Shown one piece after another: positions 9,460 to 24,353 of a stretch of DNA of 64,000 bases. The translations under genes and the position numbers were made by a program. Position 1 is the stretch's first letter. Every line of letters starts with the position of its first letter. The stretch comes from a virus: positions 1 to 64,000 of the IMG/VR virus record IMGVR_UViG_3300044825_001015, one strand, 5' to 3'. The notes beneath the pieces were generated by a model, which saw nothing but the letters and a program-made list of their open reading frames with translations, was not told where the DNA came from and made no database searches.

Positions 9460-11124
9460 GTGTCTAAAAGATTTTTTACGCCGATAGACCTTACGGGTAC
9501 AATTAGTGATTCTCCTGCTTCAGAAAGATCAATGAAGTGGTCAGATGGAGAAGGTACCTTAGAATTAGGACTAAAGGGTGGAAATGTAAAATTAGAAGTA
9601 GGTCAACAAGAGGTTGCATTATGCTATAACGGTACTGGCTCTACCATACCAAAAGGTAGTGTCGTCTATATCTCTGGCGCACAAGGTCAACGACCAAGGA
9701 TATCCCTTGCCTCAGCGTCATCTGAAATATCTTCATCTAAAACTTTTGGAATTACCTCAGAGCAAATATTAAATGGCGCAGAGGGATTTGTAACTACATT
9801 TGGAATTATTAGAAATGTAAATACTTCTGGATATACGCCAGGGCAGGCACTTTGGCTATCTACTACTGCAGGAGCATATACAAATACTGCTCCTGTAGTA
9901 CCAAACCACTCAGTATTTGTAGGCTATTGTATTAAGGCTAATGCAAGTTCTGGTCAAATTTTTGTCAATATTCAAAATGGATATGAACTTCAAGAACTTC
10001 ACAATGTTTTCATAGAAAATCCATTAAATGGACAAGCACTAAGATATAATTCTACTACTGGTCTATGGGAAAACGAATCTATTGACGGAGGAGTTTTTGA
10101 GGTATTTTATCAACCCTCCGCACCATCATCACCACTACTAGGTGATATCTGGGTAGATTCTGATGAATCTATTCCTACATATAATGCTTTAACAATTAAT
10201 GATCTTCTTCCTAATCAATCTAGCAACTCTGGTAAGTTTTTAACAACAAATGGTTCCTCCCCTTCTTGGGCCACAATAGATTTATCTACATATGCAACTT
10301 TAAACTCACCATCACTTACTGGTACGCCGATTGCCCCAACTGCTTCAGCGGGGACTAATACAACTCAAATTGCAACCACCGCTTTCGTTAGAACAGAAGT
10401 TACAAATTTAGTTGCCTCCGCCCCAAGCGCCCTAGATACTCTAGATGAACTTGCCGCAGCACTAGGTGATGATGCCAATTTTGCTACAACAGTAACTAAT
10501 TCACTTGCTGGGAAAGAGCCAACTATTACTTCTGGAACAACATCTCAGTACTGGCGCGGAGACAAAACATGGCAAACACTTAATAAATCATCTGTCGGAC
10601 TTTCTAATGTAGAAAATACTGCCTTATCAACATGGGCTGGAAGTTCAAATATAACTACTCTAGGCACAATTTCTTCTGGCACATGGCAAGGGTCTTCTAT
10701 TTCATCAACGTATATTGACCCAGCAATAGCAAGATTATCAAGTCCTACGTTTACTGGAACAGCAAATGCAGAAAGACTCTCTGTTGATTCAACAGCGTAT
10801 ATTGATACTATAACAACAACCGTATCATCTACAAGCGCTACAGAGATAGACTCATTCGTTCAATCATTATTCTCTTCCTGTGAATATTTAATTCAAATTA
10901 AACAAGGCTCTAAGGTTACAATACTCAAAGCATTGATGACTTCGGTGGACCTTGATATAGTTCAGTATGGAATAGTAGAATCTGGAGGAACTATCCCTTA
11001 TACAATAACTACAGACAGTTTTATCCCAGGTGGTGGATCAGTCACTAACAAATTATTAATTACAATAACTGATGCCAATTCTACCTCTGCGACAGTTAAG
11101 GTTGTAAGAACATCCGTGGTATAA
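9460..11124 (+). CDS. Tail-fibre-like protein with a P2 gpH-type repeat block
   Basis: SPSLTGTPIAPT...IATTAFV...LDTLDELAAALGDDANFATT. Confidence 0.78.
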   Translation: MSKRFFTPIDLTGTISDSPASERSMKWSDGEGTLELGLKGGNVKLEVGQQEVALCYNGTGSTIPKGSVVYISGAQGQRPRISLASASSEISSSKTFGITSEQILNGAEGFVTTFGIIRNVNTSGYTPGQALWLSTTAGAYTNTAPVVPNHSVFVGYCIKANASSGQIFVNIQNGYELQELHNVFIENPLNGQALRYNSTTGLWENESIDGGVFEVFYQPSAPSSPLLGDIWVDSDESIPTYNALTINDLLPNQSSNSGKFLTTNGSSPSWATIDLSTYATLNSPSLTGTPIAPTASAGTNTTQIATTAFVRTEVTNLVASAPSALDTLDELAAALGDDANFATTVTNSLAGKEPTITSGTTSQYWRGDKTWQTLNKSSVGLSNVENTALSTWAGSSNITTLGTISSGTWQGSSISSTYIDPAIARLSSPTFTGTANAERLSVDSTAYIDTITTTVSSTSATEIDSFVQSLFSSCEYLIQIKQGSKVTILKALMTSVDLDIVQYGIVESGGTIPYTITTDSFIPGGGSVTNKLLITITDANSTSATVKVVRTSVV

Positions 11125-11157
11125 TAAAACTATCAAATCCTGGGGAGAGTGAACTGG

Positions 11158-11694
11158 GTGCCCGACAAGAATTTTAAAGTCAAGAATGCCCTTGAATTAG
11201 GAACCGCGTCGATTGTGACGCCTGGTGGGACTCTATCATTACCAAGTTCAACAGATACTGTTGTGGGCAGGGCGACAAGTGATATTTTAAGCAATAAGAC
11301 TTTACAAAGCGTAGAAGAAATAACTACTATATCAGCCATCGCAGCAACGGGAACTATAAACTTTGATGCAGTTACTTCATCGATGTTATATTACACATCT
11401 AATTCAACTGCTAACTGGACATTAAATGTTAGAGGAAATTCTGGCACTACACTTAATTCTATCCTTCCAGTAGGAAGTTCATTAACAATAGTTTTTATGG
11501 CTACTAATGGTACTACCGCATACTATCAAACTGGGTTTCAAATAGATGGAGCATCTCAAACTTTGAGATGGCAAGGAGGATCTGCTCCAACTGAAGGAAC
11601 TGCTTCTGCTATAGATGTATATTCATTCTCTATAACAAAAACTGCAGCAACTCCAACATATGTAGTATTGGCAAGTGTGGCAGGTTTTGCGTAA
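11158..11694 (+). CDS. Fibre adaptor protein, cassette A (paralog of 19932-20564)
   Basis: DKNFKVKN N-terminus; C-terminal YYTSNSTANWTLN...IDVYSFSITKT...FA domain shared with 19932; GTG start 11158 (or 11149). Confidence 0.65.
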   Translation: MPDKNFKVKNALELGTASIVTPGGTLSLPSSTDTVVGRATSDILSNKTLQSVEEITTISAIAATGTINFDAVTSSMLYYTSNSTANWTLNVRGNSGTTLNSILPVGSSLTIVFMATNGTTAYYQTGFQIDGASQTLRWQGGSAPTEGTASAIDVYSFSITKTAATPTYVVLASVAGFA

Positions 11695-12809
11695 TGCCAT
11701 TAATGTCATCCCGTGCGGGAGGCTCTGCAAGAGCATTTGGATTGACAATCCTATCAGCGCTTACCCTTGTCCTTGAAACATTTAATAGGTCTGACCAGTC
11801 TGGTCTTGGTTCGGTTCGCGGTCAAAGATGGAGAGTCTTACGAGGAGTATGGTCAATTGTTGGGAATAAAGCCCTATCTTCAACTGCTGCTGGAGACAAT
11901 GCTTTAGCAACATTAAGATTTACTAAAACAGACGTTACAATTAGTGTATCTGGTGCAGATCCAGGAGTAGGAGCAGCATTCTGGGTTACAGATGCAAATA
12001 ATTGGTATGCTTCTGTTTATACTCAAACAGAAACATGTCAAACATGTTCAAATTGTAATTCTTTTAGTGGTGGTAATTGTGCTGCTGCCACCCCAGGAAA
12101 TTGTAATGCATTTACTCCAGGAACTTGTAATCAAAATGCTACAGGAAATTGTGCGAATGGAACATTCTGCTGTGCAGCGCCGACGCCAGGAACGTGTATT
12201 TCTTTTACATGCCTAGGTGGATTTACCCCAGGAAACTGTAAAGTATTTAATAGTGCTAATACAGGAAATAGAAATCCACCCTTCGGATTTTGCCACGCAC
12301 CATTAGGATTCAACCCTCCAACATGTAATACTTCTATAGTTTGTGCAAATAGCAACCCTCCAACATGTAATGCTGGTCAATGTTGTAACGGAAATTTCCC
12401 TACATGGTCGCCATATTGTGCTGGATTTTTTAATTCTCCTACTTGCCCACCAATAAACTTTAACGCACCAGTTTGTAATTCATTTAATCCAGTAGTTTGT
12501 AATGCATTTTTTACATTTTCCTGCAACTGTACTACTGAACATAGAATTTCAATACTCAGGTCTTTAGCGGGTACAGTTTCTAATATAAGCAATAATTTAT
12601 TTAGTGCAGCAATACAATCATTTAGAGTAATACTTTCTGGAAACCAGGCTACAATACAATCATTTTCAACTGCTTCTTATACATCTCAAATAGGAAATTC
12701 AGTTGTGCAATCTATAACTAGTCCACAAAAAACAACTCAGCATGGTATAATTAAGTCTACTTCAAGTTTTCAGCAAGGAACATCAATAAACGAATTCGGA
12801 GTAAATTGA
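11694..12809 (+). CDS. Putative virion appendage protein: beta-rich domain with a 165-aa, 24-Cys insert
   Basis: Coupled (TAATG) to the adaptor; Cys115-Cys279 with ~8-residue periodic CxxxTPGN/NPPTC units. Confidence 0.65.
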   Translation: MPLMSSRAGGSARAFGLTILSALTLVLETFNRSDQSGLGSVRGQRWRVLRGVWSIVGNKALSSTAAGDNALATLRFTKTDVTISVSGADPGVGAAFWVTDANNWYASVYTQTETCQTCSNCNSFSGGNCAAATPGNCNAFTPGTCNQNATGNCANGTFCCAAPTPGTCISFTCLGGFTPGNCKVFNSANTGNRNPPFGFCHAPLGFNPPTCNTSIVCANSNPPTCNAGQCCNGNFPTWSPYCAGFFNSPTCPPINFNAPVCNSFNPVVCNAFFTFSCNCTTEHRISILRSLAGTVSNISNNLFSAAIQSFRVILSGNQATIQSFSTASYTSQIGNSVVQSITSPQKTTQHGIIKSTSSFQQGTSINEFGVN

Positions 12810-13102
12810 TGAAAAAAAGAGATACTTATAAATCATATTTAATTAAAAAAATATTAGGCGTAGACACTACATACTACAAGCCTAACCCAAAATTTACTAG
12901 ATCAGATCAAGTTCCTATGCATCTTGCACTAGTAATTGATGGGGTAGTTGAAGATATAATTCATTGTGACGAAAGACTTGGCTATATATTATTAAGCAAT
13001 CCAGATATTATTGATATAAAAGATAAATTTAGAAAAGTTAATATATCTGATATATATGATGAAGAATCGAACACTTTTTCTAAGGAAGTAAAAAATGTCT
13101 GA
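12809..13102 (+). CDS. Hypothetical protein (paralog of 13327-13530)
   Basis: LALVIDGVVE...ILLSNPDIIDI. Confidence 0.65.
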   Translation: MKKRDTYKSYLIKKILGVDTTYYKPNPKFTRSDQVPMHLALVIDGVVEDIIHCDERLGYILLSNPDIIDIKDKFRKVNISDIYDEESNTFSKEVKNV

Positions 13103-13334
13103 AAGGCAAGTAAGACCATGGGATCTTTTTAATAAAAAAATGGGTAGAGTAGACAATGAAACCTATAAAAAAAGATTAGAAATTTGTCAAACATGCCCTG
13201 AATTAATAAAAACTACATTTCAATGTAAAAAGTGTGGATGCTTTATGAAACAAAAAAATAAATTAGCAGATGCAAGTTGCCCGCTAAAAAAGTGGGGAGT
13301 TCATAAGATAGAGGAGGTGTCAACAAATGAATGA
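13095..13334 (+). CDS. Small Cys-rich protein (DUF6171-like)
   Basis: RLEICQTC...QCKKCGCFMKQK...SCPLKKW; family name recalled, not searched. Confidence 0.65.
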   Translation: MSERQVRPWDLFNKKMGRVDNETYKKRLEICQTCPELIKTTFQCKKCGCFMKQKNKLADASCPLKKWGVHKIEEVSTNE

Positions 13335-13530
13335 AAGAGTTTTAGCATTTGTCATTGATGGTAAGGTAGAAAGAGTCATGAGATTTGATGAAGCCAATGC
13401 TGCTATTTTCTTATCAAATCCTAATGTCATTGATATAACAGATGTTCAAGTGACTGAATCATGGAATTACGATCCATCAAAGGGATTTTATGCAGATATA
13501 GACGGAACAGAACTGGTTATTCCTAAATGA
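13327..13530 (+). CDS. Hypothetical protein (paralog of 12809-13102)
   Basis: LAFVIDGKVE...IFLSNPNVIDI; SD GAGGAGGTG. Confidence 0.65.
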   Translation: MNERVLAFVIDGKVERVMRFDEANAAIFLSNPNVIDITDVQVTESWNYDPSKGFYADIDGTELVIPK

Positions 13531-14279
13531 TAAAAAGAATTAGATTTGTTCCAAATGATCTATATGCATATGAAAATATAGATCCACCCGTACCATCTAA
13601 AGCACTTGTACCAGATTGGTATAGGTCTGGAGAAATTGCTGTACATGCAGATACGGGTAAAATAGCAAAGACAAGCGATAATCATATAATTGGTGGCATG
13701 AAATCATGCATCCCATTTTTAGACGCAATTATTTCAGGGTACTCAATATGTCTATGGGAAGATTTATATGTAGCAACTACTGATAAGGTAGAAAAATTTT
13801 ATTCAGTTGAAAAAAACCCATATACCGATAATTATGAAGAAAAGCAACAACCATATCTTCCAATGGTAGAAGAAAGAACTGGAGATAGTGGCTATACGAT
13901 TCCTAGACCAAATGGATATTGCCATAACCATATGATTTTTAAGGGTCAATGGGGAGTAAGACTTCCAAAAGGCTGGAGCCTTGAAGTTACACATCCATTA
14001 AATAGGTTTGATCTTCCATTTATTACTACATCTGGTATCATTGATTCAGATGAATGGTGGACTGGAGGAAACATTCCATTTTTCTTCCAGAAGGATTTTG
14101 AAGGAGTTATTCCTAAAGGAACGCCAATAGCACAGTTAATTCCAATAAAAAGAAGTTCATGGATTTCTTATGTTAGTGAATTAAGTGCTTCAAGAAGTAG
14201 ATATATTTCTAATAAAGTTAGATCTGTACCTATGGGATGGTATAAAAATAATATTTGGGTTAAGAAAGAGTACAACTAG
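13527..14279 (+). CDS. dUTPase-fold/DUF6065-related protein
   Basis: KSCIPFLDAIISGY; THPLNRFDLPF..SGIIDSD; IPKGTPIAQLIP. Confidence 0.6.
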   Translation: MIKRIRFVPNDLYAYENIDPPVPSKALVPDWYRSGEIAVHADTGKIAKTSDNHIIGGMKSCIPFLDAIISGYSICLWEDLYVATTDKVEKFYSVEKNPYTDNYEEKQQPYLPMVEERTGDSGYTIPRPNGYCHNHMIFKGQWGVRLPKGWSLEVTHPLNRFDLPFITTSGIIDSDEWWTGGNIPFFFQKDFEGVIPKGTPIAQLIPIKRSSWISYVSELSASRSRYISNKVRSVPMGWYKNNIWVKKEYN

Positions 14280-14280
14280 A

Positions 14281-15036
14281 ATGTCTAAAGAATCATTAAA
14301 TATAGAGTTTCTTCCAGTTGAGAATTTTGGTGTCGGATGTATTGAACCTGTCCCAGCATCTAGAGAAATACCTAAATGGTATAAAAAAATGCCTTCACTA
14401 AGGAAATTTTGGAATCAGGAGGACCCAGATGAAAAAGCAGACTATACAGCAAAAAAATGTATACCAATATTAGATGCATTTACAACTGGATATTATTTAG
14501 TGACTAAATATGATTCATATTGGAGTGTAGATGAAGATGGCACACATGAATGTAAATGCGATGCTAAATTAGTAGAAGGCGGGTCCAAGCCTATCACTAT
14601 GCATCCATATGAGCAGATTAGGGGAATAGAACTCGGAGGCATCTATAACGAATATGCCTATAAGTTTACAAACCCTTTTGTCATTAAAACACCTCCTGGA
14701 TATAGTTGTATGTTTACACATCCATTTAATCAAGTATCTCCATTTCTAACCCTTACTGGAGTGGTAGATACAGATATGCATCCATTGGCAGTACAATTTC
14801 CATTTCTTATGTTAAAGAATTATGAAGGAGTAATCAAATCAGGAACTCCTATTGTTCAAATAATTCCATTTAAGAGAGATGATTGGACGTACTCAGTAAG
14901 AAAGCCAAATAACTTAGATGTTCAGGAAAGTTCTTTAAGGCACAGCCAGTTTGGTTCTACTAGATATGATAAGGACGGAAACCCAACTGGTGGAGAATAC
15001 AAAAAGAAATATCGCGTTAAAAAGAAATATTTGTAG
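14281..15036 (+). CDS. dUTPase-fold/DUF6065-related protein
   Basis: KKCIPILDAFTTGY; TGVVDTD; IKSGTPIVQIIPFKR; start 14281 by alignment with paralogs. Confidence 0.6.
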   Translation: MSKESLNIEFLPVENFGVGCIEPVPASREIPKWYKKMPSLRKFWNQEDPDEKADYTAKKCIPILDAFTTGYYLVTKYDSYWSVDEDGTHECKCDAKLVEGGSKPITMHPYEQIRGIELGGIYNEYAYKFTNPFVIKTPPGYSCMFTHPFNQVSPFLTLTGVVDTDMHPLAVQFPFLMLKNYEGVIKSGTPIVQIIPFKRDDWTYSVRKPNNLDVQESSLRHSQFGSTRYDKDGNPTGGEYKKKYRVKKKYL

Positions 15037-15044
15037 GAGATATT

Positions 15045-15641
15045 GTGGCTATTGAAATATTCCCAGGAGCAGTACAATTCGATTTTTCTAAATCTTTAGC
15101 AAAAGAAATAATTAAGCAAGCAGAAAAATCTAAGTATCCATGGATGGACTCAGCAGTAGGAACGGGGTCTGGTTCTATTGCTAAACATGTTCGATCCAGC
15201 CTATCCCTTGGACTAGATGCCCTAGAAATATCACAAAAAGAAGTAAGACCATACATTTATGAATGTGTAAAACAATATACATCATATTATGATGTAGAGG
15301 TTACAAAAGATGACGGACTTACTCTGCTAAAGTATGAATCTTATGATAAATATCAATTTCATATTGATTATGGTCCAGGTAATTATAGAGAAGTATCATG
15401 TTTAATTTATCTTAATCCAGGTGAATATGAAGGTGGAGGAACAACATTTAAGCATTTTAATTACACTATACAGCCAGAAGAACCTACACTAGTTCTTTTC
15501 CCTTCAAACTACCCATATTTGCACGCAGCAGAACCAGTATCTAAAGGGAGAAAGTATATAATAGTAACATGGATGACAAATCAAATAGATAATATGATGA
15601 CGCATGGATCTGCATGTTCATGTGGGCTTAATCATTTATAA
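15045..15641 (+). CDS. Prolyl-4-hydroxylase-type 2OG-Fe(II) oxygenase
   Basis: FHID...SCLIYLN...YEGGGTTF...HAAEPVSKGRKY (His...Lys+10). Confidence 0.87.
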   Translation: MAIEIFPGAVQFDFSKSLAKEIIKQAEKSKYPWMDSAVGTGSGSIAKHVRSSLSLGLDALEISQKEVRPYIYECVKQYTSYYDVEVTKDDGLTLLKYESYDKYQFHIDYGPGNYREVSCLIYLNPGEYEGGGTTFKHFNYTIQPEEPTLVLFPSNYPYLHAAEPVSKGRKYIIVTWMTNQIDNMMTHGSACSCGLNHL

Positions 15642-15670
15642 AAAAGTAATTTTTGAGTTATAATAATAAT

Positions 15671-16852
15671 ATGGCAAAAGTAGCAAGAGTATGGGATGGT
15701 TCTGAATGGGTTGTACTCTCTCCTGCGACTATAAATCCATACCCATCCCAAACAGGAAATTCTGGTAAATTTTTAAGCACAGATGGGTCTGCAGTATCAT
15801 GGCAAACAGTAGATTTATCTAGTAAGGCTAATATAAATTCTCCAGAATTTACTGGAATTCCAACTGCTCCAACTGCTGCACCAGGAACAAATAGCACCCA
15901 GATTGCTACTACAGGATTTGTTTATAATGAAATATCGCTATTGATAGATGCCGCCCCAGCAGCATTAAATACTTTAAATGAATTAGCAGCAGCACTAGGT
16001 GACGATGCAAATTTTGCCACCACAATAACAAATGCCGTATCAGGCAAAGAGCCTAGTATTCCAACAGGAACTACCCAACAATATTGGAGGGGAGATAAAA
16101 GTTGGCAAACATTAGATAAAAATGCGGTAGGATTAAGCAACGTAGAAAATACTGCTTTAAGTACATGGGCAGGATCAACAAATATAACTACTGTAGGAAC
16201 ATTAACAAATCTAACCGTAACAAATACTATTACAGGAAGTATTACTGGTAATGCTGGAACAGTAACAAATGGGGTATACACTACAGGATCATACTCTAAT
16301 CCATCCTGGATCACATCTCTTTCTGAAACAAAAGTTCTTCCAAGTCAGACAGGAAATTCTGGAAAGTATTTAACTACCAACGGAACGTCCACTTCTTGGA
16401 CAGAACTTAATGTATCTTTTAACTCACCATCTTTTACTGGGACACCTACTGCACCAACTCCTCCAACTGGAAATAATTCCACAAGAATAGCAACCACAGA
16501 ATTTGTTCAAAAGACTCTAGAAATAACACAACTAGATACATTTACGTTCGACGGGAAGACTTTAAGATTTCTTCCAACCTATCTGGGTCAGGTAGTGGAA
16601 ATAGACCACCCACTTAGGCTTTTACTAAACATTAATGGTATAATTCAGATAGTAGCCGAAAAACCAAGCACAGTCTGGCTATCTGGAATGGCAAGTTATG
16701 GTTATTACATAGATGATGAAGGATATGTAGTACTTCCAGAGCCACCAGAACCAGGATCGTACTTTGAGGCTAGGCTATTTCCAGGAGTGGATTTGCAAAA
16801 AAGACCAGAAACTTATCCATTCAGGGCAATTGATATATACTTAGGAGATTAA
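15671..16852 (+). CDS. Tail-fibre-like protein with P2 gpH-type repeat blocks
   Basis: ~150-aa block paralogous to the 9460 protein plus a partial internal copy; start MAKVARVWDG. Confidence 0.78.
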   Translation: MAKVARVWDGSEWVVLSPATINPYPSQTGNSGKFLSTDGSAVSWQTVDLSSKANINSPEFTGIPTAPTAAPGTNSTQIATTGFVYNEISLLIDAAPAALNTLNELAAALGDDANFATTITNAVSGKEPSIPTGTTQQYWRGDKSWQTLDKNAVGLSNVENTALSTWAGSTNITTVGTLTNLTVTNTITGSITGNAGTVTNGVYTTGSYSNPSWITSLSETKVLPSQTGNSGKYLTTNGTSTSWTELNVSFNSPSFTGTPTAPTPPTGNNSTRIATTEFVQKTLEITQLDTFTFDGKTLRFLPTYLGQVVEIDHPLRLLLNINGIIQIVAEKPSTVWLSGMASYGYYIDDEGYVVLPEPPEPGSYFEARLFPGVDLQKRPETYPFRAIDIYLGD

Positions 16853-19931: not shown

Positions 19932-20564
19932 ATGCCAATTAATAGAATTAGATTAGATGATGTTGATATTAGAAACATTACGTCTACTACATCATTGCTA
20001 AATACTACATTAGGTCAGGTTCAAGAAGATGTGGCAAATAATCTAATATCTACTAATAACTCTATTGCACAACTACAATCAGATTTAAGAAATCTTGATG
20101 GGGAAGTAGATACAAAGGCAAATATAAATAGTCCTACATTTACTGGTACCGTAACTGCTGGAAGCACATTAATTACAAATGAAGTAGTTGAAAATTACTT
20201 ACTTCGTGGTGAAGGTGCTACTGGAACTTTAAATATAAATATTTCAGATTCATCAATACACTACTATGTAAATAATTCTAGTGCTAACTGGACATTTAAT
20301 TTTAGAGCAAGTGATTCTGTTTCTTTAAACACATTCCTTTCTGGTGGTCAGGCGGTAACTGCAACAATATTAATTACTAATGGTGCTACCCCATTTAGAC
20401 CAACAGCATTTCAAGTAGATGGAGTTTCAACTACCGTAAGATGGGCAGACGCTCTTGTACCAGCATCTGGAAATGCAAATAGTATTGATATTTATTCATT
20501 TAGTATACTTAAGACAGGAAACAACACATTTGTTGTGCTAGGTAGTTTTGCAAGGTTTGCGTAA
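19932..20564 (+). CDS. Fibre adaptor protein, cassette B (coiled coil plus shared C-terminal domain)
   Basis: YYVNNSSANWTFNFR...IDIYSFSILKT...FA, paralogous to 11158. Confidence 0.65.
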   Translation: MPINRIRLDDVDIRNITSTTSLLNTTLGQVQEDVANNLISTNNSIAQLQSDLRNLDGEVDTKANINSPTFTGTVTAGSTLITNEVVENYLLRGEGATGTLNINISDSSIHYYVNNSSANWTFNFRASDSVSLNTFLSGGQAVTATILITNGATPFRPTAFQVDGVSTTVRWADALVPASGNANSIDIYSFSILKTGNNTFVVLGSFARFA

Positions 20565-21481
20565 TGCCTTTTATATCTAAGTTTAGTGGACATGGGAGGG
20601 TTCCTGGAATTCATAAGCCAGAGGCACCACCAACTCCTACACTATCCGCAACTGCTTCAACAATAAACAGCCTAACATTTACGATAAATAACTATGTTGC
20701 AAATTGGACATATGTAATAAGCATATCTCCTAGTGCTGGAACAATATCTCGTACTGATGGAACAGTAAGTGTTACTGGGTTAAATTCAAGTACAACATAT
20801 ACTCTTACTGTAACAGCAAGAAATTCTGGAGGCGAGGCCACAAATACTGTAAATGGAACTACTGGAACTCCACCACCATTCTTCCCTTCATTTGCTCCAT
20901 TCTTTCCCTTCTTCCCAAGTTTTCCCTTCTTCCCATTTTTCCCAAGTTTTCCGTTCTTCCCATTTTTCCCAAGTTTTCCGTCGTTTCCATTCTTCCCCAA
21001 CTTTGTTAGGCCAGGGCCAGCACCAGTAAAAACTGCACCATCTGCAGCGTTATCAGATATACAAAGCATACAAATATTAACATCAGAATATGGATATTTG
21101 GATGCAAAGTATTTAACTGAAGAGGACAAATTAAAGTCATATGCATTAGAAGGAATCGGTACCAATAAAGTAAACATTATTGAAGACATAGATACTGAAA
21201 TAATAAAAATAGATTCTCATAGTGATGTTAGTAATATTTATTTTATTAATAACGAGGGCTATTCTTCAAACTGCTACCTACTCTGTAGAAGGAACGATAT
21301 AATAGATTTTATTAATGTTAAAGAGATAAGCGAATCTGACAAAATTTTTAATTACGAAAATAAAGATTTTGTTGATATAAAATCTTATAGATCAGAAAGC
21401 GTTTCTGGTATTATTTATAATATAGAATGTCTACCAATTAACTACTATGTGATACACAGTAGTTTAGGTTACTTTAAATAA
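20564..21481 (+). CDS. Putative appendage protein: FN3-like domain, (Pro-x-Phe)14 repeat and degenerate Hint-like domain
   Basis: VTGLNSSTTYTLTVTARN (FN3); PFFPSF repeats; C-terminal 140 aa follow the Hint block pattern. Confidence 0.7.
   Translation: MPFISKFSGHGRVPGIHKPEAPPTPTLSATASTINSLTFTINNYVANWTYVISISPSAGTISRTDGTVSVTGLNSSTTYTLTVTARNSGGEATNTVNGTTGTPPPFFPSFAPFFPFFPSFPFFPFFPSFPFFPFFPSFPSFPFFPNFVRPGPAPVKTAPSAALSDIQSIQILTSEYGYLDAKYLTEEDKLKSYALEGIGTNKVNIIEDIDTEIIKIDSHSDVSNIYFINNEGYSSNCYLLCRRNDIIDFINVKEISESDKIFNYENKDFVDIKSYRSESVSGIIYNIECLPINYYVIHSSLGYFK
20876..21004 (+). repeat. Coding tandem repeat: 14 Pro-x-Phe triplets, including ~2.5 copies of a 27-bp unit (20912-20980)
   Basis: TTCCCAAGTTTTCC(C/G)TTCTTCCCATTT repeated. 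Confidence 0.92.
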
Positions 21482-21496
21482 AGAAAGAAAATAAAT

Positions 21497-22225
21497 ATGA
21501 ATGAGTGGCTTGATAAGTCTCGTGAAGAGACTGATACTAGGCGTATGCCAGATAAATATTTAGACGAAATTATTGTATCCAACCCAGCATTAGGAATTAA
21601 TGTATATAGAAATGCTATACCTAAAGATTCATGTAAAAAAACTATATCAACTTTAGAAAAGGTTCTTAACTCTACTGGTCCTTATAGTTGGCAGCCAGCA
21701 AATGTTACTGAATCTGATGACCCGTTATTAGAGGCAAGATACTGTGTTGATTTTAAAATTGGTCAAAAAAATCTAGGTGAAGTAAATCAATATAATAAAA
21801 AATTGTATGAATTACATGAAGACATATTCCAGTATGTCTATAAGTGTTCTGTAGATTATGGAAGATACTGGGGTGTCGGACTGAACTACTTTGAGGTATT
21901 TAATTTTGTTAGATATGAAAGTCCTGGTCAACACTTTAATATTCATGCAGATCATGGACCAGCATATGTAACAACAATATCTGCAGTAGCATACTTAAAT
22001 GATGACTATGAAGGTGGAGAGTTATATTTCCCTAGATTTAATTTAACAATAAAGCCAGAGGCTGGAGATATAGTATTTTTCCCATCTACATTTATTTATG
22101 AGCATTCATCTGAGCCAATGATATCTGGAACTAAATATTCAGTAGTTATAATGACTGATTATAATTCTAGAGGTGGTCTTAGGTATTACCCATACAGACA
22201 AAATGAAGAAACTTTAATTTATTAG
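21497..22225 (+). CDS. Prolyl-4-hydroxylase-type 2OG-Fe(II) oxygenase
   Basis: IHADHG...AYLNDDYEGGELYF...HSSEPMISGTKY. Confidence 0.88.
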   Translation: MNEWLDKSREETDTRRMPDKYLDEIIVSNPALGINVYRNAIPKDSCKKTISTLEKVLNSTGPYSWQPANVTESDDPLLEARYCVDFKIGQKNLGEVNQYNKKLYELHEDIFQYVYKCSVDYGRYWGVGLNYFEVFNFVRYESPGQHFNIHADHGPAYVTTISAVAYLNDDYEGGELYFPRFNLTIKPEAGDIVFFPSTFIYEHSSEPMISGTKYSVVIMTDYNSRGGLRYYPYRQNEETLIY

Positions 22226-22232
22226 GATTTAT

Positions 22233-22931
22233 ATGGAAGATATAAAAGATATAGAAAATAATATTAAAAATTTTTATTCTTATTCTGGACAAACATGGTC
22301 TTCATATGAAGAGGTTGCAAATGGTATATATGTTTTCCATGACTTAATCCCTAGTGTATCGGTAAAAATGCTAGAAGATGTTATGTCTGATACCTATAAT
22401 CCATATTCTTATTCCAAGGCTATGGTGGGGTATCAAATGCATATACCAGAGTACAGAGATTGCTTGGACTTTAAATATAAAAAAACAGATATTGAAAATG
22501 ACAATAGTATATCTGGAATGATGCTTAAGAAACTATGGGATATGATTTATAACAAATCATTGCCTGCCGTTAAAAAATATTGTGAAGATTTTAATATAGG
22601 AGAACTTAGGTACTGGGAGTCTATGAATTTTGTTAAGTATGGCCCTGGTCAACATTTTCAGGAGCATCATGACCATGGTTTTTCTTATAATTGTGTAGTT
22701 TCTTTAGTAGGATATCCAAATGATGATTATGAGGGTGGAGAGATATATTTTAGAAGGCAGGGTTTAGAAATAAAGCCAAAAGCAGGGGACCTGTTTGTGT
22801 TTCCATCAAATTTCATGTATCCACATAGAGCAATGCCAGTAAAAAGCGGTAATAAGTACTCTATAGTCACGATGCTTGATTACTCAGATAAGTTTCACAA
22901 GCCAGAATTTTATCAGGAAACCAATTCATGA
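22233..22931 (+). CDS. Prolyl-4-hydroxylase-type 2OG-Fe(II) oxygenase
   Basis: EHHDHG...YPNDDYEGGEIYF...HRAMPVKSGNKY. Confidence 0.88.
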   Translation: MEDIKDIENNIKNFYSYSGQTWSSYEEVANGIYVFHDLIPSVSVKMLEDVMSDTYNPYSYSKAMVGYQMHIPEYRDCLDFKYKKTDIENDNSISGMMLKKLWDMIYNKSLPAVKKYCEDFNIGELRYWESMNFVKYGPGQHFQEHHDHGFSYNCVVSLVGYPNDDYEGGEIYFRRQGLEIKPKAGDLFVFPSNFMYPHRAMPVKSGNKYSIVTMLDYSDKFHKPEFYQETNS

Positions 22932-23641
22932 ATTTAATAGATGCATATCAATCAGAAGAATCAGTTGTAAATATTGATCAACTTCCTATGTCAAGAGACT
23001 GGATGGATAGGACATTTAGTAAGCATTCCTATCATTGCTTTCCGATGACTTTATCTAATAGATTAGGATGGGGAATATCCTTAAAACATGACTTCTGCTT
23101 TATATGGGATGGTGAAGAGTCTTCTAGTTCTCATCATATTAATATAATTAAAGGTCAAGATTATGTAAGTAATCTTAGAGGAAACAAAACAATAAGCATA
23201 GATACTGGACTATATATTTCTCCACAAAAAAATATTTCAATATTAACTATGCCTCCTCCCAATATTTTTATTGAAGGTCTGCAATGCATAAGTACTATTA
23301 TTAGCACATCTGCAATGGTCGGGCCTCTTCCAATAGCATTGATGGCTAATATTCCAAACAAAAAAATCTATATTAAGGCAGGAACAATATTGGCTAGCAT
23401 CCTTCCTGTTAAACTTTCTGAAATGAATGAGACAGAACTTCACATTAAAAAAGGAATACCTCCCTTTATGATGACTAAAGAATGGACAGACAACTTTGAA
23501 GAAAGAAGTAAAGTTTCAATGGAGGTAAATTCCAAGGGAGGGTGGAATGATTTTTATAGAGATGCTATAGACCATAGAGGTGTAAGGCATGGAGAGCATG
23601 AGGCTAAAAAAATAATTATGAAGGTAGTCCATGAAGATTAA
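22928..23641 (+). CDS. DUF6065-like protein
   Basis: RDWMD...HSYHCFPMTLSNRLGW; PPPNIF; IKAGTILASILP; FYRDA. Confidence 0.65.
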   Translation: MNLIDAYQSEESVVNIDQLPMSRDWMDRTFSKHSYHCFPMTLSNRLGWGISLKHDFCFIWDGEESSSSHHINIIKGQDYVSNLRGNKTISIDTGLYISPQKNISILTMPPPNIFIEGLQCISTIISTSAMVGPLPIALMANIPNKKIYIKAGTILASILPVKLSEMNETELHIKKGIPPFMMTKEWTDNFEERSKVSMEVNSKGGWNDFYRDAIDHRGVRHGEHEAKKIIMKVVHED

Positions 23642-24353
23642 TTTCATATCTAATAGGCCATGGTTAAATAAAAAAAGTAAAACTAATCCAGAACCCTCAG
23701 TAAAAAATATACCTGACTGGTATATAAAAGAGAGTAGATATGTTAAAGATGATTTAGGAAACTATACCCTAGATCAATACGGACATAAAGTTCCTTCCTG
23801 GAAAGGCTGTCCAGCAATATATGACATTATTGGTACTGGGTATGTATTGAAAACACCATGTGACATTGAATTTTACCAAGATGGCGATGATTTTAAAGTA
23901 AAACTTAACAAAAGATATTCAGATTTCATACAGTATAGGCCAGACTGGTCATTGCATGGATTTCCTAAGCCAGAGGGATATAGAAAGGACCACTTTGCTT
24001 GGTGGCCTGATTGGGCAATAGAAGTTCCAGATGGATATAGCGTTTTATACTCTCAGCCATTCAATAGATTTGACCTACCATTTTTAAATACTACTGGAAT
24101 TGTAGACAACGATAAGGTAAACCTTCCAGGAACTATGCCATTTTTTGTAAGAGAGGGATGGGAGGGAGTAATAAAGCAAGGTACCCCATATCTACAAATT
24201 TTACCATTTAAAAGAGAAGATTGGGATTCTGACTATATTTTCCCAGATGAATACGAAATGTATGAAAAAAATATGAAGAATATTGAAAAGTATAGAGTAC
24301 CTGGAGGGGGAGTCTATCTTAATCAAGTATGGTCTAAGAGAAGGTACTCATAG
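23631..24353 (+). CDS. dUTPase-fold/DUF6065-related protein
   Basis: WKGCPAIYDIIGTGY; QPFNRFDLPF..TGIVDND; IKQGTPYLQILPFKR. Confidence 0.6.
   Translation: MKINFISNRPWLNKKSKTNPEPSVKNIPDWYIKESRYVKDDLGNYTLDQYGHKVPSWKGCPAIYDIIGTGYVLKTPCDIEFYQDGDDFKVKLNKRYSDFIQYRPDWSLHGFPKPEGYRKDHFAWWPDWAIEVPDGYSVLYSQPFNRFDLPFLNTTGIVDNDKVNLPGTMPFFVREGWEGVIKQGTPYLQILPFKREDWDSDYIFPDEYEMYEKNMKNIEKYRVPGGGVYLNQVWSKRRYS

Follow-up and report, generated by a model that had tools for sequence, protein, structure and literature searches.

We predict that a gene in the uncultured virus of IMG/VR record IMGVR_UViG_3300044825_001015, at positions 11694-12809, encodes a lectin-type appendage protein of the virion that bears a stalk of adjustable length, braced by 12 disulfide rungs. 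The window analyzed here is the first 64,000 nucleotides (64 kb) of this record, which is a complete genome of 104,844 bp with direct terminal repeats. We consider this reading as a whole to be probable, and we assign the product to the virion appendages (tail module) on the basis of gene context and fold. The parts of the gene on which the argument turns are listed here, with cysteine (Cys), amino acids (aa), the concanavalin A (ConA)-like fold, AlphaFold2 (AF2) and its local confidence score (pLDDT) abbreviated.

11694..12809, + strand: whole gene, encoding a predicted 371-aa lectin-fold appendage protein with a putative Cys-laddered hairpin insert (open reading frame list, homologues)
11757..12035, + strand: predicted N-terminal half of the ConA-like beta-sandwich, residues 22-114 (AF2 pLDDT 90-97, VIA-align)
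12036..12239, + strand: putative ascending arm, C115-C182, 12 Cys (Cys pattern; AF2 strand 103-124 leading from the sandwich into the base)
12240..12290, + strand: putative tip loop, K183-F199, with a conserved PP(F/Y)GF motif (sequence; identity among relatives)
12291..12530, + strand: putative descending arm, C200-C279, 12 Cys (Cys pattern; AF2 strand 269-291 leading back into the sandwich)
12531..12806, + strand: predicted C-terminal half of the ConA-like beta-sandwich, residues 280-371 (AF2 pLDDT 89-97; fold matches span residues 22-371)

A cysteine-rich insert in a lectin-type domain

The initial annotation of this DNA had described 24 Cys between C115 and C279, 12 on either side of a 17-residue loop. 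Translation of 11694-12809 gives exactly this arrangement (nt 12036-12530), and all Cys of the protein lie within the insert. The spacings are also as described, namely 3,3,8,8,8,8,6,1,8,5,9 in the left arm, 18 across the loop and 11,6,8,5,1,11,9,10,8,8,2 in the right arm. Each arm contains one CC doublet (159/160 and 230/231), the left units are of the TPG(N/T)C type and the right units of the N-P-x-x-C type, and the insert lacks Asp and Glu and has a single Lys, Arg and His at its center (K183, R193, H201), all in agreement with the initial annotation. Cys makes up 14.5% of the 165-residue insert, which is also rich in Asn, Pro, Thr, Phe, Gly, Ala and Ser (28 N, 19 P, 17 T, 17 F and 16 G). 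With 6.5% Cys, compared to a mean of 0.98% for the plus-strand open reading frames (ORFs) of the genome, the gene product is the top Cys outlier of this virus.

The two arms are built from different units. The ascending arm begins at the base with CxxCxxC and continues through four 8-residue units of the type x-x-x-(T/S)-(P/G)-G-(N/T)-C, a CC landmark (GTFCC) and the inner units. The descending arm leads from inner units of the GFNPPTC type through a second CC landmark (NAGQCC-NGNFPTWSPYC) and outer F-N-P-x-x-C units to a CxC at the base. Between the arms, the 17-residue tip loop K183-F199 (KVFNSANTGNRNPPFGF) holds the sole Lys and the sole Arg of the insert. The gene DNA contains a single weak 24-nt tandem of 2.5 copies, and no inverted repeats were found within it; the symmetry is therefore a property of the protein and not a DNA artifact. 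The gene is real, given its 85 homologous clusters of metagenomic relatives at 25-100% identity and its translational coupling to both neighbors: the start overlaps the upstream gene by one base (TAATG, 11692-11696), and there is a 4-nt overlap with the downstream gene at 12806-12809.

The claim that the insert interrupts a beta-rich domain is upheld by an AF2 model built with a 66-row alignment. In this model, residues 22-114 and 280-371 join into one ConA-like sandwich, and pLDDT is 90-97 over residues 21-120 and 271-371. The strands at 103-124 and 269-291 are long and leave the sandwich side by side, and further strands are predicted in the inner stalk at 168-174 and 214-220. Residues 1-21 form a conserved, unstructured N-terminal peptide. 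A signal peptide was considered and ruled out, as residues 21-30 are part of the confidently folded sandwich.

The best match in a VIA-align scan of PDB representatives was the carbohydrate-binding module CBM66 (4b1m; Z 16.5, root-mean-square deviation 2.7, 148 residues aligned), followed by the galactocerebrosidase lectin domain (3zr5, Z 16.1), the C-terminal receptor-binding domain of mycobacteriophage TM4 gp23 (9n6a, Z 15.1) and the Douge baseplate protein (8zdo, Z 14.6). A total of 114 chains reached Z>=8, and those listed are almost all lectins, carbohydrate-binding modules (CBMs) or members of the GH16 and GH43 families. Foldseek against the PDB gave weak lectin-type rows only, and the fold became visible with VIA-align. 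In the BFVD viral library, six uncharacterized proteins of uncultured phages rank first, followed by named minor tail proteins of Arthrobacter, Gordonia, Rhodococcus and Mycobacterium phages (E 1e-3 to 2e-5). The model thus places the frame in the ConA-like lectin/glucanase fold, a two-sheet jelly-roll, and the flank fold together with the actinophage minor-tail neighbors indicates that the insert interrupts a lectin-type receptor-binding domain. The likeness is structural only: no Pfam family, including the DUF7257-type minor-tail receptor-binding domain, matched the 371-aa protein at E<=0.1, and no PHROG or NCBIfam family matched it. The insert alone had no match among PDB sequences at E<=10, and in the Atlas it gave no usable feature match and no structural neighbor above a TM score of 0.34.

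Arms that evolve as partners

The family comprises 134 loci in IMG/VR, and a library of 1.84 billion proteins contains 1190 representative clusters (50% identity) at E<=1e-3 and 206 at E<=1e-30. Its members are confined to uncultured, mostly freshwater phages, and hundreds share the length-adjustable design. Phage GenBank records yielded no match by tblastn with the protein or by megablast with the 9 kb around the gene. A scan of 185,579 prokaryote species genomes matched one contig, in a metagenome-assembled genome labeled Bacteroidetes, which is probably a mis-binned phage. Across relatives the flanks stay alignable while the insert varies greatly, with a Cys number from 0 to 46. Longer forms include L071 and L074 (570-630 aa) and P0223 (1848 aa). 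In one relative (L038:5773-6909 and L039:2429-3565), a Cys-free insert of about 150 residues, rich in Tyr, Thr, Ser and Gly, occupies the same site in the sandwich; it may represent an aromatic-zippered version of the stalk. Another relative (L081:3352-4791, 480 aa) carries the same lectin domain with a short 6-Cys insert, C-terminal to repeats resembling fibronectin type III (FN3). Because this FN3-repeat protein ends with the same domain, the N-terminus of the window protein would by analogy face the virion, which suggests that the lectin domain and stalk are distal.

The initial annotation expected homologues to gain or lose Cys in pairs, and they do. Of 142 distinct blocks, 138 contain an even number of Cys, as do 136 of 140 further representatives with no more than 50% pairwise identity, and landmark counts and paired losses agree with this. 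The order of the gaps follows the same logic: mirror order beats same order in 101 of 113 and 102 of 127 gap lists, the pooled gap correlation is r = 0.62 when mirrored compared to 0.16 in the same order, and perfect palindromic gap lists exist (for example, in P0068, L056 and L028). In the clade with two CC doublets, the stretch ahead of the first CC holds one Cys more than the stretch behind the second (n = 3 to 11), with P0021 as the single exception, and the Cys count between the doublets is always odd. Asymmetric indels would be awkward for paired arms; arm counts co-vary in the two-CC members, and P0021 alone has unequal arms. These patterns recur across clades that share only 25-40% identity.

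Individual columns also behave as partners, and base and tip Cys are lost pairwise. Anchored Cys columns co-occur best with the partner expected from nesting (phi 1.0 for C121/C269, 0.57 for C118/C277 and 0.71 for C182/C200); for C182/C200, both Cys are present in 54 rows, neither in 7 and a single one in 5. The two CC doublets co-occur at 0.82. In four relatives (P0016, P0020, P0025 and P0032) the arm types have been exchanged, with cross-side scores of 131-149 compared to same-side scores of 32-35. In these swapped relatives the motif NxxCC-NGxFPTWSPY stands in the left arm and GxFCC...TPGxC in the right arm. P0017 and P0027 are also swapped-arm relatives; the flanking domain stays collinear, and such a rearrangement is unusual within one gene. 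In P0073/76/77/78 the base motif CxxC...CxC is inverted to CxC...CxxC. In long forms with 37-44 Cys, five ATYSTVPGNC units stand opposite five NATNATAYPC units; this pairing of unit types recurs deeper in the stalk, with the sides exchanged.

Together, five independent patterns (parity, gap order, landmark counts, paired loss and arm swapping) indicate arms that would run antiparallel and touch one another about a two-fold pseudo-axis. We therefore regard it as very likely, from sequence comparison, that the insert is a paired antiparallel hairpin whose arms are in contact unit against unit, as the initial annotation had supposed of a long antiparallel hairpin. Its description of the insert as roughly mirror-symmetric needs qualification: the reversed gap order fits, but the symmetry is two-fold rotational, since the N-to-C order within modules is the same in the two arms and the arm types can change sides.

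The same data bear on whether the arms are covalently tied at all. One could suppose that the Cys remain reduced as small core residues, or that they pair locally as in EGF, knottin, granulin or antifreeze beta-helix proteins. Paired units alone can give parity, the site tolerates the Cys-free Tyr-rich insert, and short CxxxC/CxxxxC modules in relatives (SYPC, GWTC-NSxxC) could close locally. However, the Cys persist where identity at the remaining insert positions is down to 16-25%, and Cys that lie 18 and 148 residues apart are lost jointly (C182/C200 and C121/C269). Local pairing gives no reason for mirror order or arm swapping, and the EGF, granulin, knottin and antifreeze families are unmatched in Pfam (E up to 0.1), with no PDB sequence match at E up to 10. 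We consider an insert without an arm-to-arm covalent ladder to be very improbable. The retention of Cys amid such divergence, together with the rarity of single losses, favors a chemical role for these residues.

Bracing, shape and tip of the proposed stalk

In the stalk that we propose, the chain would exit between two neighboring strands of the sandwich, travel outward for 68 residues, turn in the 17-residue loop and return over 80 residues. Twelve nested Cys pairs would tie the antiparallel arms together: 115-279, 118-277, 121-269, 129-261, 137-251, 145-242, 153-231, 159-230, 160-225, 168-217, 173-211 and 182-200. Judged from the Cys positions, this nested scheme appears to be the only one for the window protein in which all Cys are paired and no pairs cross, and we infer the exact pairing on that ground. 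The CC modules would form a symmetric triple, in which the first Cys of the left module meets the third of the right, second meets second and the third of the left meets the first of the right. The arms would thus present two different, complementary unit types around the two-fold pseudo-axis.

The protein would be made with free thiols in the reducing cytoplasm, and the rungs would most likely oxidize to disulfides once lysis exposes the virion to oxygenated water. Adjacent thiol pairs on a particle in oxic water are expected to oxidize. No Erv1/ALR, thioredoxin, glutaredoxin, DsbA or radical SAM protein is encoded in the complete genome, and oxidation after lysis is therefore the simplest route. 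There is precedent for such bonds in the freshwater cyanophage Pam3, in which virion disulfides were seen by cryo-electron microscopy and mass spectrometry and dithiothreitol releases the fibers (PMC9942802). Like the virus described here, Pam3 is made in a reducing cytoplasm, and its free virion has functional disulfides in the baseplate and fibers; it differs in having a few inter-subunit bonds that attach fibers rather than an intrachain ladder, and the proteins are unrelated (PMC9942802). From the sequence patterns, we think it likely that disulfides are present in the free virion.

Alternatively, the paired Cys could bind Zn, Fe or Cu between the arms, a metal-thiolate ladder that would be compatible with a reducing cytoplasm. 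The cytoplasmic synthesis of the protein, the lack of an encoded oxidase, the base CxxC opposite CxC (a possible four-Cys site) and the six-Cys, zinc-ribbon-like DUF6171 protein that is the constant neighbor of the family all fit this idea. Against it, Cys4 sites need multiples of four, and these make up 65 of 138 and 60 of 130 even Cys counts, which is the chance level. With only about one even count in two divisible by four, disulfides are favored. The insert departs from metallothioneins and zinc knuckles in its 8-10-residue spacing and its 17 Phe, it offers no His or Asp/Glu as co-ligands, and general thiol chemistry predicts oxidation of the thiol pairs in oxic water. We give the metal ladder little credence.

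A third possibility is that three hairpins combine into a six-stranded needle, with Cys bridging the chains or lining the axis. In the receptor-binding tip of T4 gp37 the chain goes out and returns, and seven Fe ions are held by His along the needle (PMC6957217). The likeness to our protein extends to the regularly spaced bracing residues on both passes and to the receptor contacts at the gp37 turn (PMC6957217). This precedent, the fact that phage fibers are commonly trimers, and the rather hydrophobic character of an isolated ribbon with one aromatic residue per 8-residue unit and no charge all speak for a trimer. However, gp37 is an interwoven trimer with His-coordinated Fe, whereas in the window protein Cys would do the bracing, the insert contains a single His and no HxH motif, and the frame, in place of a fiber shaft, is a ConA-like sandwich that the insert interrupts between two adjacent strands. 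The protein also has no long N-terminal trimerization region, and three-fold sites with one Cys per chain would not force even numbers. A homotrimer prediction for a relative (P0015, 325 aa, three copies, 44-row alignment) returned a score of 0.01, or "no answer", and is used neither for nor against oligomerization. We consider a trimeric needle unlikely.

Several observations weigh against the disulfide-braced stalk that we favor. In the window protein alone, the strict mirror fit is weak (shuffle p ~0.04), and across the family pooled p-values overstate independence because the sequences are related. P0021 (391 aa) has 8 Cys before and 9 after its CC landmarks and 13/15 around the tip, although its total is still even; this asymmetry reflects either an intra-arm pair that is tolerated or an assembly error, as the sequence comes from a single 1.7-kb contig. 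Even parity is also expected from paired packing of units without a covalent bond, and the Cys-free insert of L038/L039 indicates that a hairpin can exist at this site without Cys. The mismatch between left and right gaps of the window protein ranges from 0 to 5 residues, and odd spacings are common, neither of which a regular cross-strand beta ladder would permit. Structure prediction, suggested in the initial annotation as a check, was confident for the flanks but fell to pLDDT <50 at residues 130-155, 187-197 and 234-253 of the stalk and tip. No phage thiol oxidase, thioredoxin, glutaredoxin or DsbA that could catalyze the oxidation is encoded, and virion location and receptor binding are argued from gene context and fold only. 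The strength of the paired-hairpin case, which is one of sequence comparison, comes from the family and not from the window protein alone.

The irregular register is informative about the shape of the stalk. Since the rungs are out of strict register and most stalk units hold Pro-Gly or Asn-Pro, the braced stalk is better described as a putative chain of 5- to 20-residue macrocycles than as a flat, regular beta-ribbon. It would be thin, uncharged and resistant to protease and shear, with an upper bound on its length of about 22-26 nm if the arms were fully extended. Evolution would tune this length by gain or loss of one unit per arm.

The initial annotation had imagined a stalk that projects a variable tip. 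This is not borne out: what varies is the stalk, and the tip is conserved. Identity among the 14 closest relatives is 69% for the tip, compared to 41-43% for the outer stacks, which have 26-34% gaps, and 89-93% for the base. Proteins with widely differing stalks have distinct tip modules in common (N-S-A-N-T-G-N-x-x-P-P-x-G-F; A-P-K-G-F; G-L-T-F-A-Q-A-Q-A-C-G-G-C-K). Given a conserved tip and a variable stalk, the working end could be the tip, with the stalk as a spacer or probe of tunable length. We suggest this tentatively; if it is so, the conserved tip, with its basic residues and PP(F/Y)GF motif, would be the likeliest contact site.

Neighboring genes, host and related systems

The gene belongs to a block of appendage genes that sits upstream of the portal, protease and major capsid genes. 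The features around it are listed here.

9460..11124, + strand: tail-fiber-like protein heading the cassette (phrog_2631, phrog_454 and phrog_7032, tail fiber, E 1e-28 to 1e-31; Pfam Phage_cement_2)
11149..11694, + strand: 181-aa phrog_5906 protein, a possible adaptor, translationally coupled upstream (PHROG match)
13095..13334, + strand: DUF6171 protein, 79 aa, six Cys (CxxC...CxxCxC...C; Pfam E 3e-7)
13527..14279, + strand: DUF6065-like protein with dUTPase/dCTP-deaminase fold, a frequent neighbor (phrog_7084; Atlas neighbors carry DUF6065)
14287..15036, + strand: second DUF6065 paralogue (Pfam PF19541, 28.1 bits, cut-off 26.6)
15045..15641, + strand: 2-oxoglutarate (2OG)-Fe(II) oxygenase PF13640, of the prolyl-hydroxylase-type superfamily (Pfam E 9e-14; NCBIfam Fe2+-dependent dioxygenase E 3e-9)
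15653..16852: second tail-fiber gene
22928-23641 and 23631-24353: DUF6065 genes of a second cassette (DUF6065-type; four in the window, two per cassette)

A paralogue of the 181-aa phrog_5906 protein is encoded at 19932-20564; the two are 47% identical over 116 aa. Neighbors were counted in those 65 related loci for which 3 kb or more of downstream sequence is available, and the phrog_5906 gene adjoins the family gene in 12 of them. The most constant neighbor of the family is DUF6171, found downstream in 52 of the 65 loci irrespective of Cys number. A role for DUF6171 as a Cys-specific helper was ruled out, as it accompanies low-Cys or Cys-free members (17 of 23) as well as Cys-rich ones (14 of 17) and is also beside the Cys-free L038. 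On this genomic evidence, DUF6171 appears as a constant partner of the lectin-domain protein and not of its cysteines. A comparison of the DUF6171 protein with PDB sequences gave no informative match. Small ORFs at 12806-13102 (98 aa) and 13327-13530 (67 aa) flank the DUF6171 gene, and both recur downstream in many related loci.

The downstream enzymes raise the possibility that the stalk is tailored, for example by Pro or Asn hydroxylation, beside or instead of disulfide formation. A PF13640 oxygenase and two DUF6065 genes lie downstream, and a second cassette at 19932-24353 repeats the plan with a paralogous adaptor, a protein with FN3 and Pro/Phe repeats, two PF13640 oxygenases and two DUF6065 genes. 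DUF6065 is downstream in 31 of 65 loci, including 12 of the 17 with >20 Cys, and the 19 Pro of the insert stand in TPG and NPP contexts. However, this is a neighborhood association only, confounded by relatedness, and the oxygenase occurs in 15 of 65 loci. DUF6065 has a dUTPase fold without known protein-modifying activity, no radical SAM enzyme is encoded, and nothing ties these enzymes to Cys chemistry. A tailoring role of the neighbors, such as Pro hydroxylation, is thus possible from the neighborhood, while a stalk explained as an enzyme substrate seems to us rather improbable. For the DUF6065-like protein at 13527-14279, the top 22 fold matches of an AF2 model with pLDDT 91 are all dUTPases or dCTP deaminases (Z 9.4-5.5), which rules out an oxidase or cupin; C61 and four other columns are invariant in a 34-row alignment of this protein.

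The host is probably a freshwater actinobacterium. Two WhiB-family genes outside the window, at 85928-86101 (+) and 100758-100952 (-), score 41 and 60.7 bits, both above the cut-off, and WhiB is a marker for recognizing actinophages in freshwater metagenomes (PMC10914622). Also outside the window, two more Cys-rich ORFs on the plus strand encode proteins of 94 aa (68353-68637, 10 Cys) and 175 aa (75780-76307, 10 Cys). The possibility that the gene is the target of a diversity-generating retroelement was ruled out: no RVT_1 reverse transcriptase was found in the complete 104.8-kb genome, and the gene contains short, diverged direct repeats, none of them template-like, the rest of the genome being unscanned for a template copy.

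The frame of the protein has familiar relatives. Its flanking 185 residues share their beta-sandwich with the ConA-like receptor-binding domains of actinophages (9n6a, 8zdo) and with CBM66 (4b1m), and the gene lies in a tail-fiber module. The sequence identity, however, is only 8-12%, and in the window protein nothing but a 21-residue N-terminal peptide precedes the domain, which does not sit at the end of a long fiber. We know of no Cys-rich hairpin insert in the TM4 gp23, Douge or CBM66 domains. A search of the literature on cystine ladders with phage, cysteine-rich tail fibers and the neighboring DUFs found no description of this design. The frame is an ordinary actinophage-type lectin receptor-binding domain, and the stalk module is undescribed.

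In its proposed connectivity, the stalk resembles the cystine ladders of theta-defensins, protegrin and tachyplesin, which also have two antiparallel arms with nested cross-arm Cys pairs. These are cationic secreted peptides of 17-18 residues with rungs two residues apart, three parallel disulfides in theta-defensins and two in protegrin and tachyplesin. In contrast, the ladder proposed here would have 12 rungs (0-23 in relatives) at spacings of 1-11 residues, mostly 8-10, with unequal arms and an uncharged stalk. It is a 165-residue insert with three basic residues that changes length in evolution through gain and loss of paired units, and it sits in a phage protein of 371 aa. The beetle antifreeze beta-helix TmAFP and granulin hairpin stacks are similar in their short repeats rich in Thr, Asn, Ser and Cys. 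Their repeats have one or two Cys each, follow one another in the same order and form a regular stack with local disulfides, whereas the order here is mirrored or two-fold about the tip, and there is no Pfam or PDB sequence similarity. Metallothioneins and Cys4 zinc modules differ in Cys content (about 30%, compared to 14.5% in the insert), in the 17 Phe of the insert and in Cys counts that are not tied to four.

We speculate that the family represents a new two-fold, heterotypic, two-strand architecture of 0-23 rungs, with one cross-link per 8-10-residue unit and either strand type ascending. It would act as an oxidative zipper that is flexible and inert in the cell, stiffens after lysis and carries the tip to a receptor buried in the actinobacterial envelope. 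This combination of architecture and mechanism is doubtful as a whole, and we put it forward as a conjecture. As the virions are put together in a reducing cytoplasm and the phage brings no thiol oxidase, the question of their oxidative maturation arises. The arm swaps and paired indels provide an unusually clean natural covariation set for predicting disulfide connectivity. A name for the family would give an annotation to a "hypothetical protein" that recurs in tail modules of abundant, probably actinophage, viruses. If the nested disulfide ladder is correct, the two- or three-rung ladder of small peptides would have been extended to 12-23 rungs inside a folded protein. Such a ladder would offer a simple, evolvable route to a thin rod of chosen length, with a bearing both on protein design and on how phages reach through the envelope.

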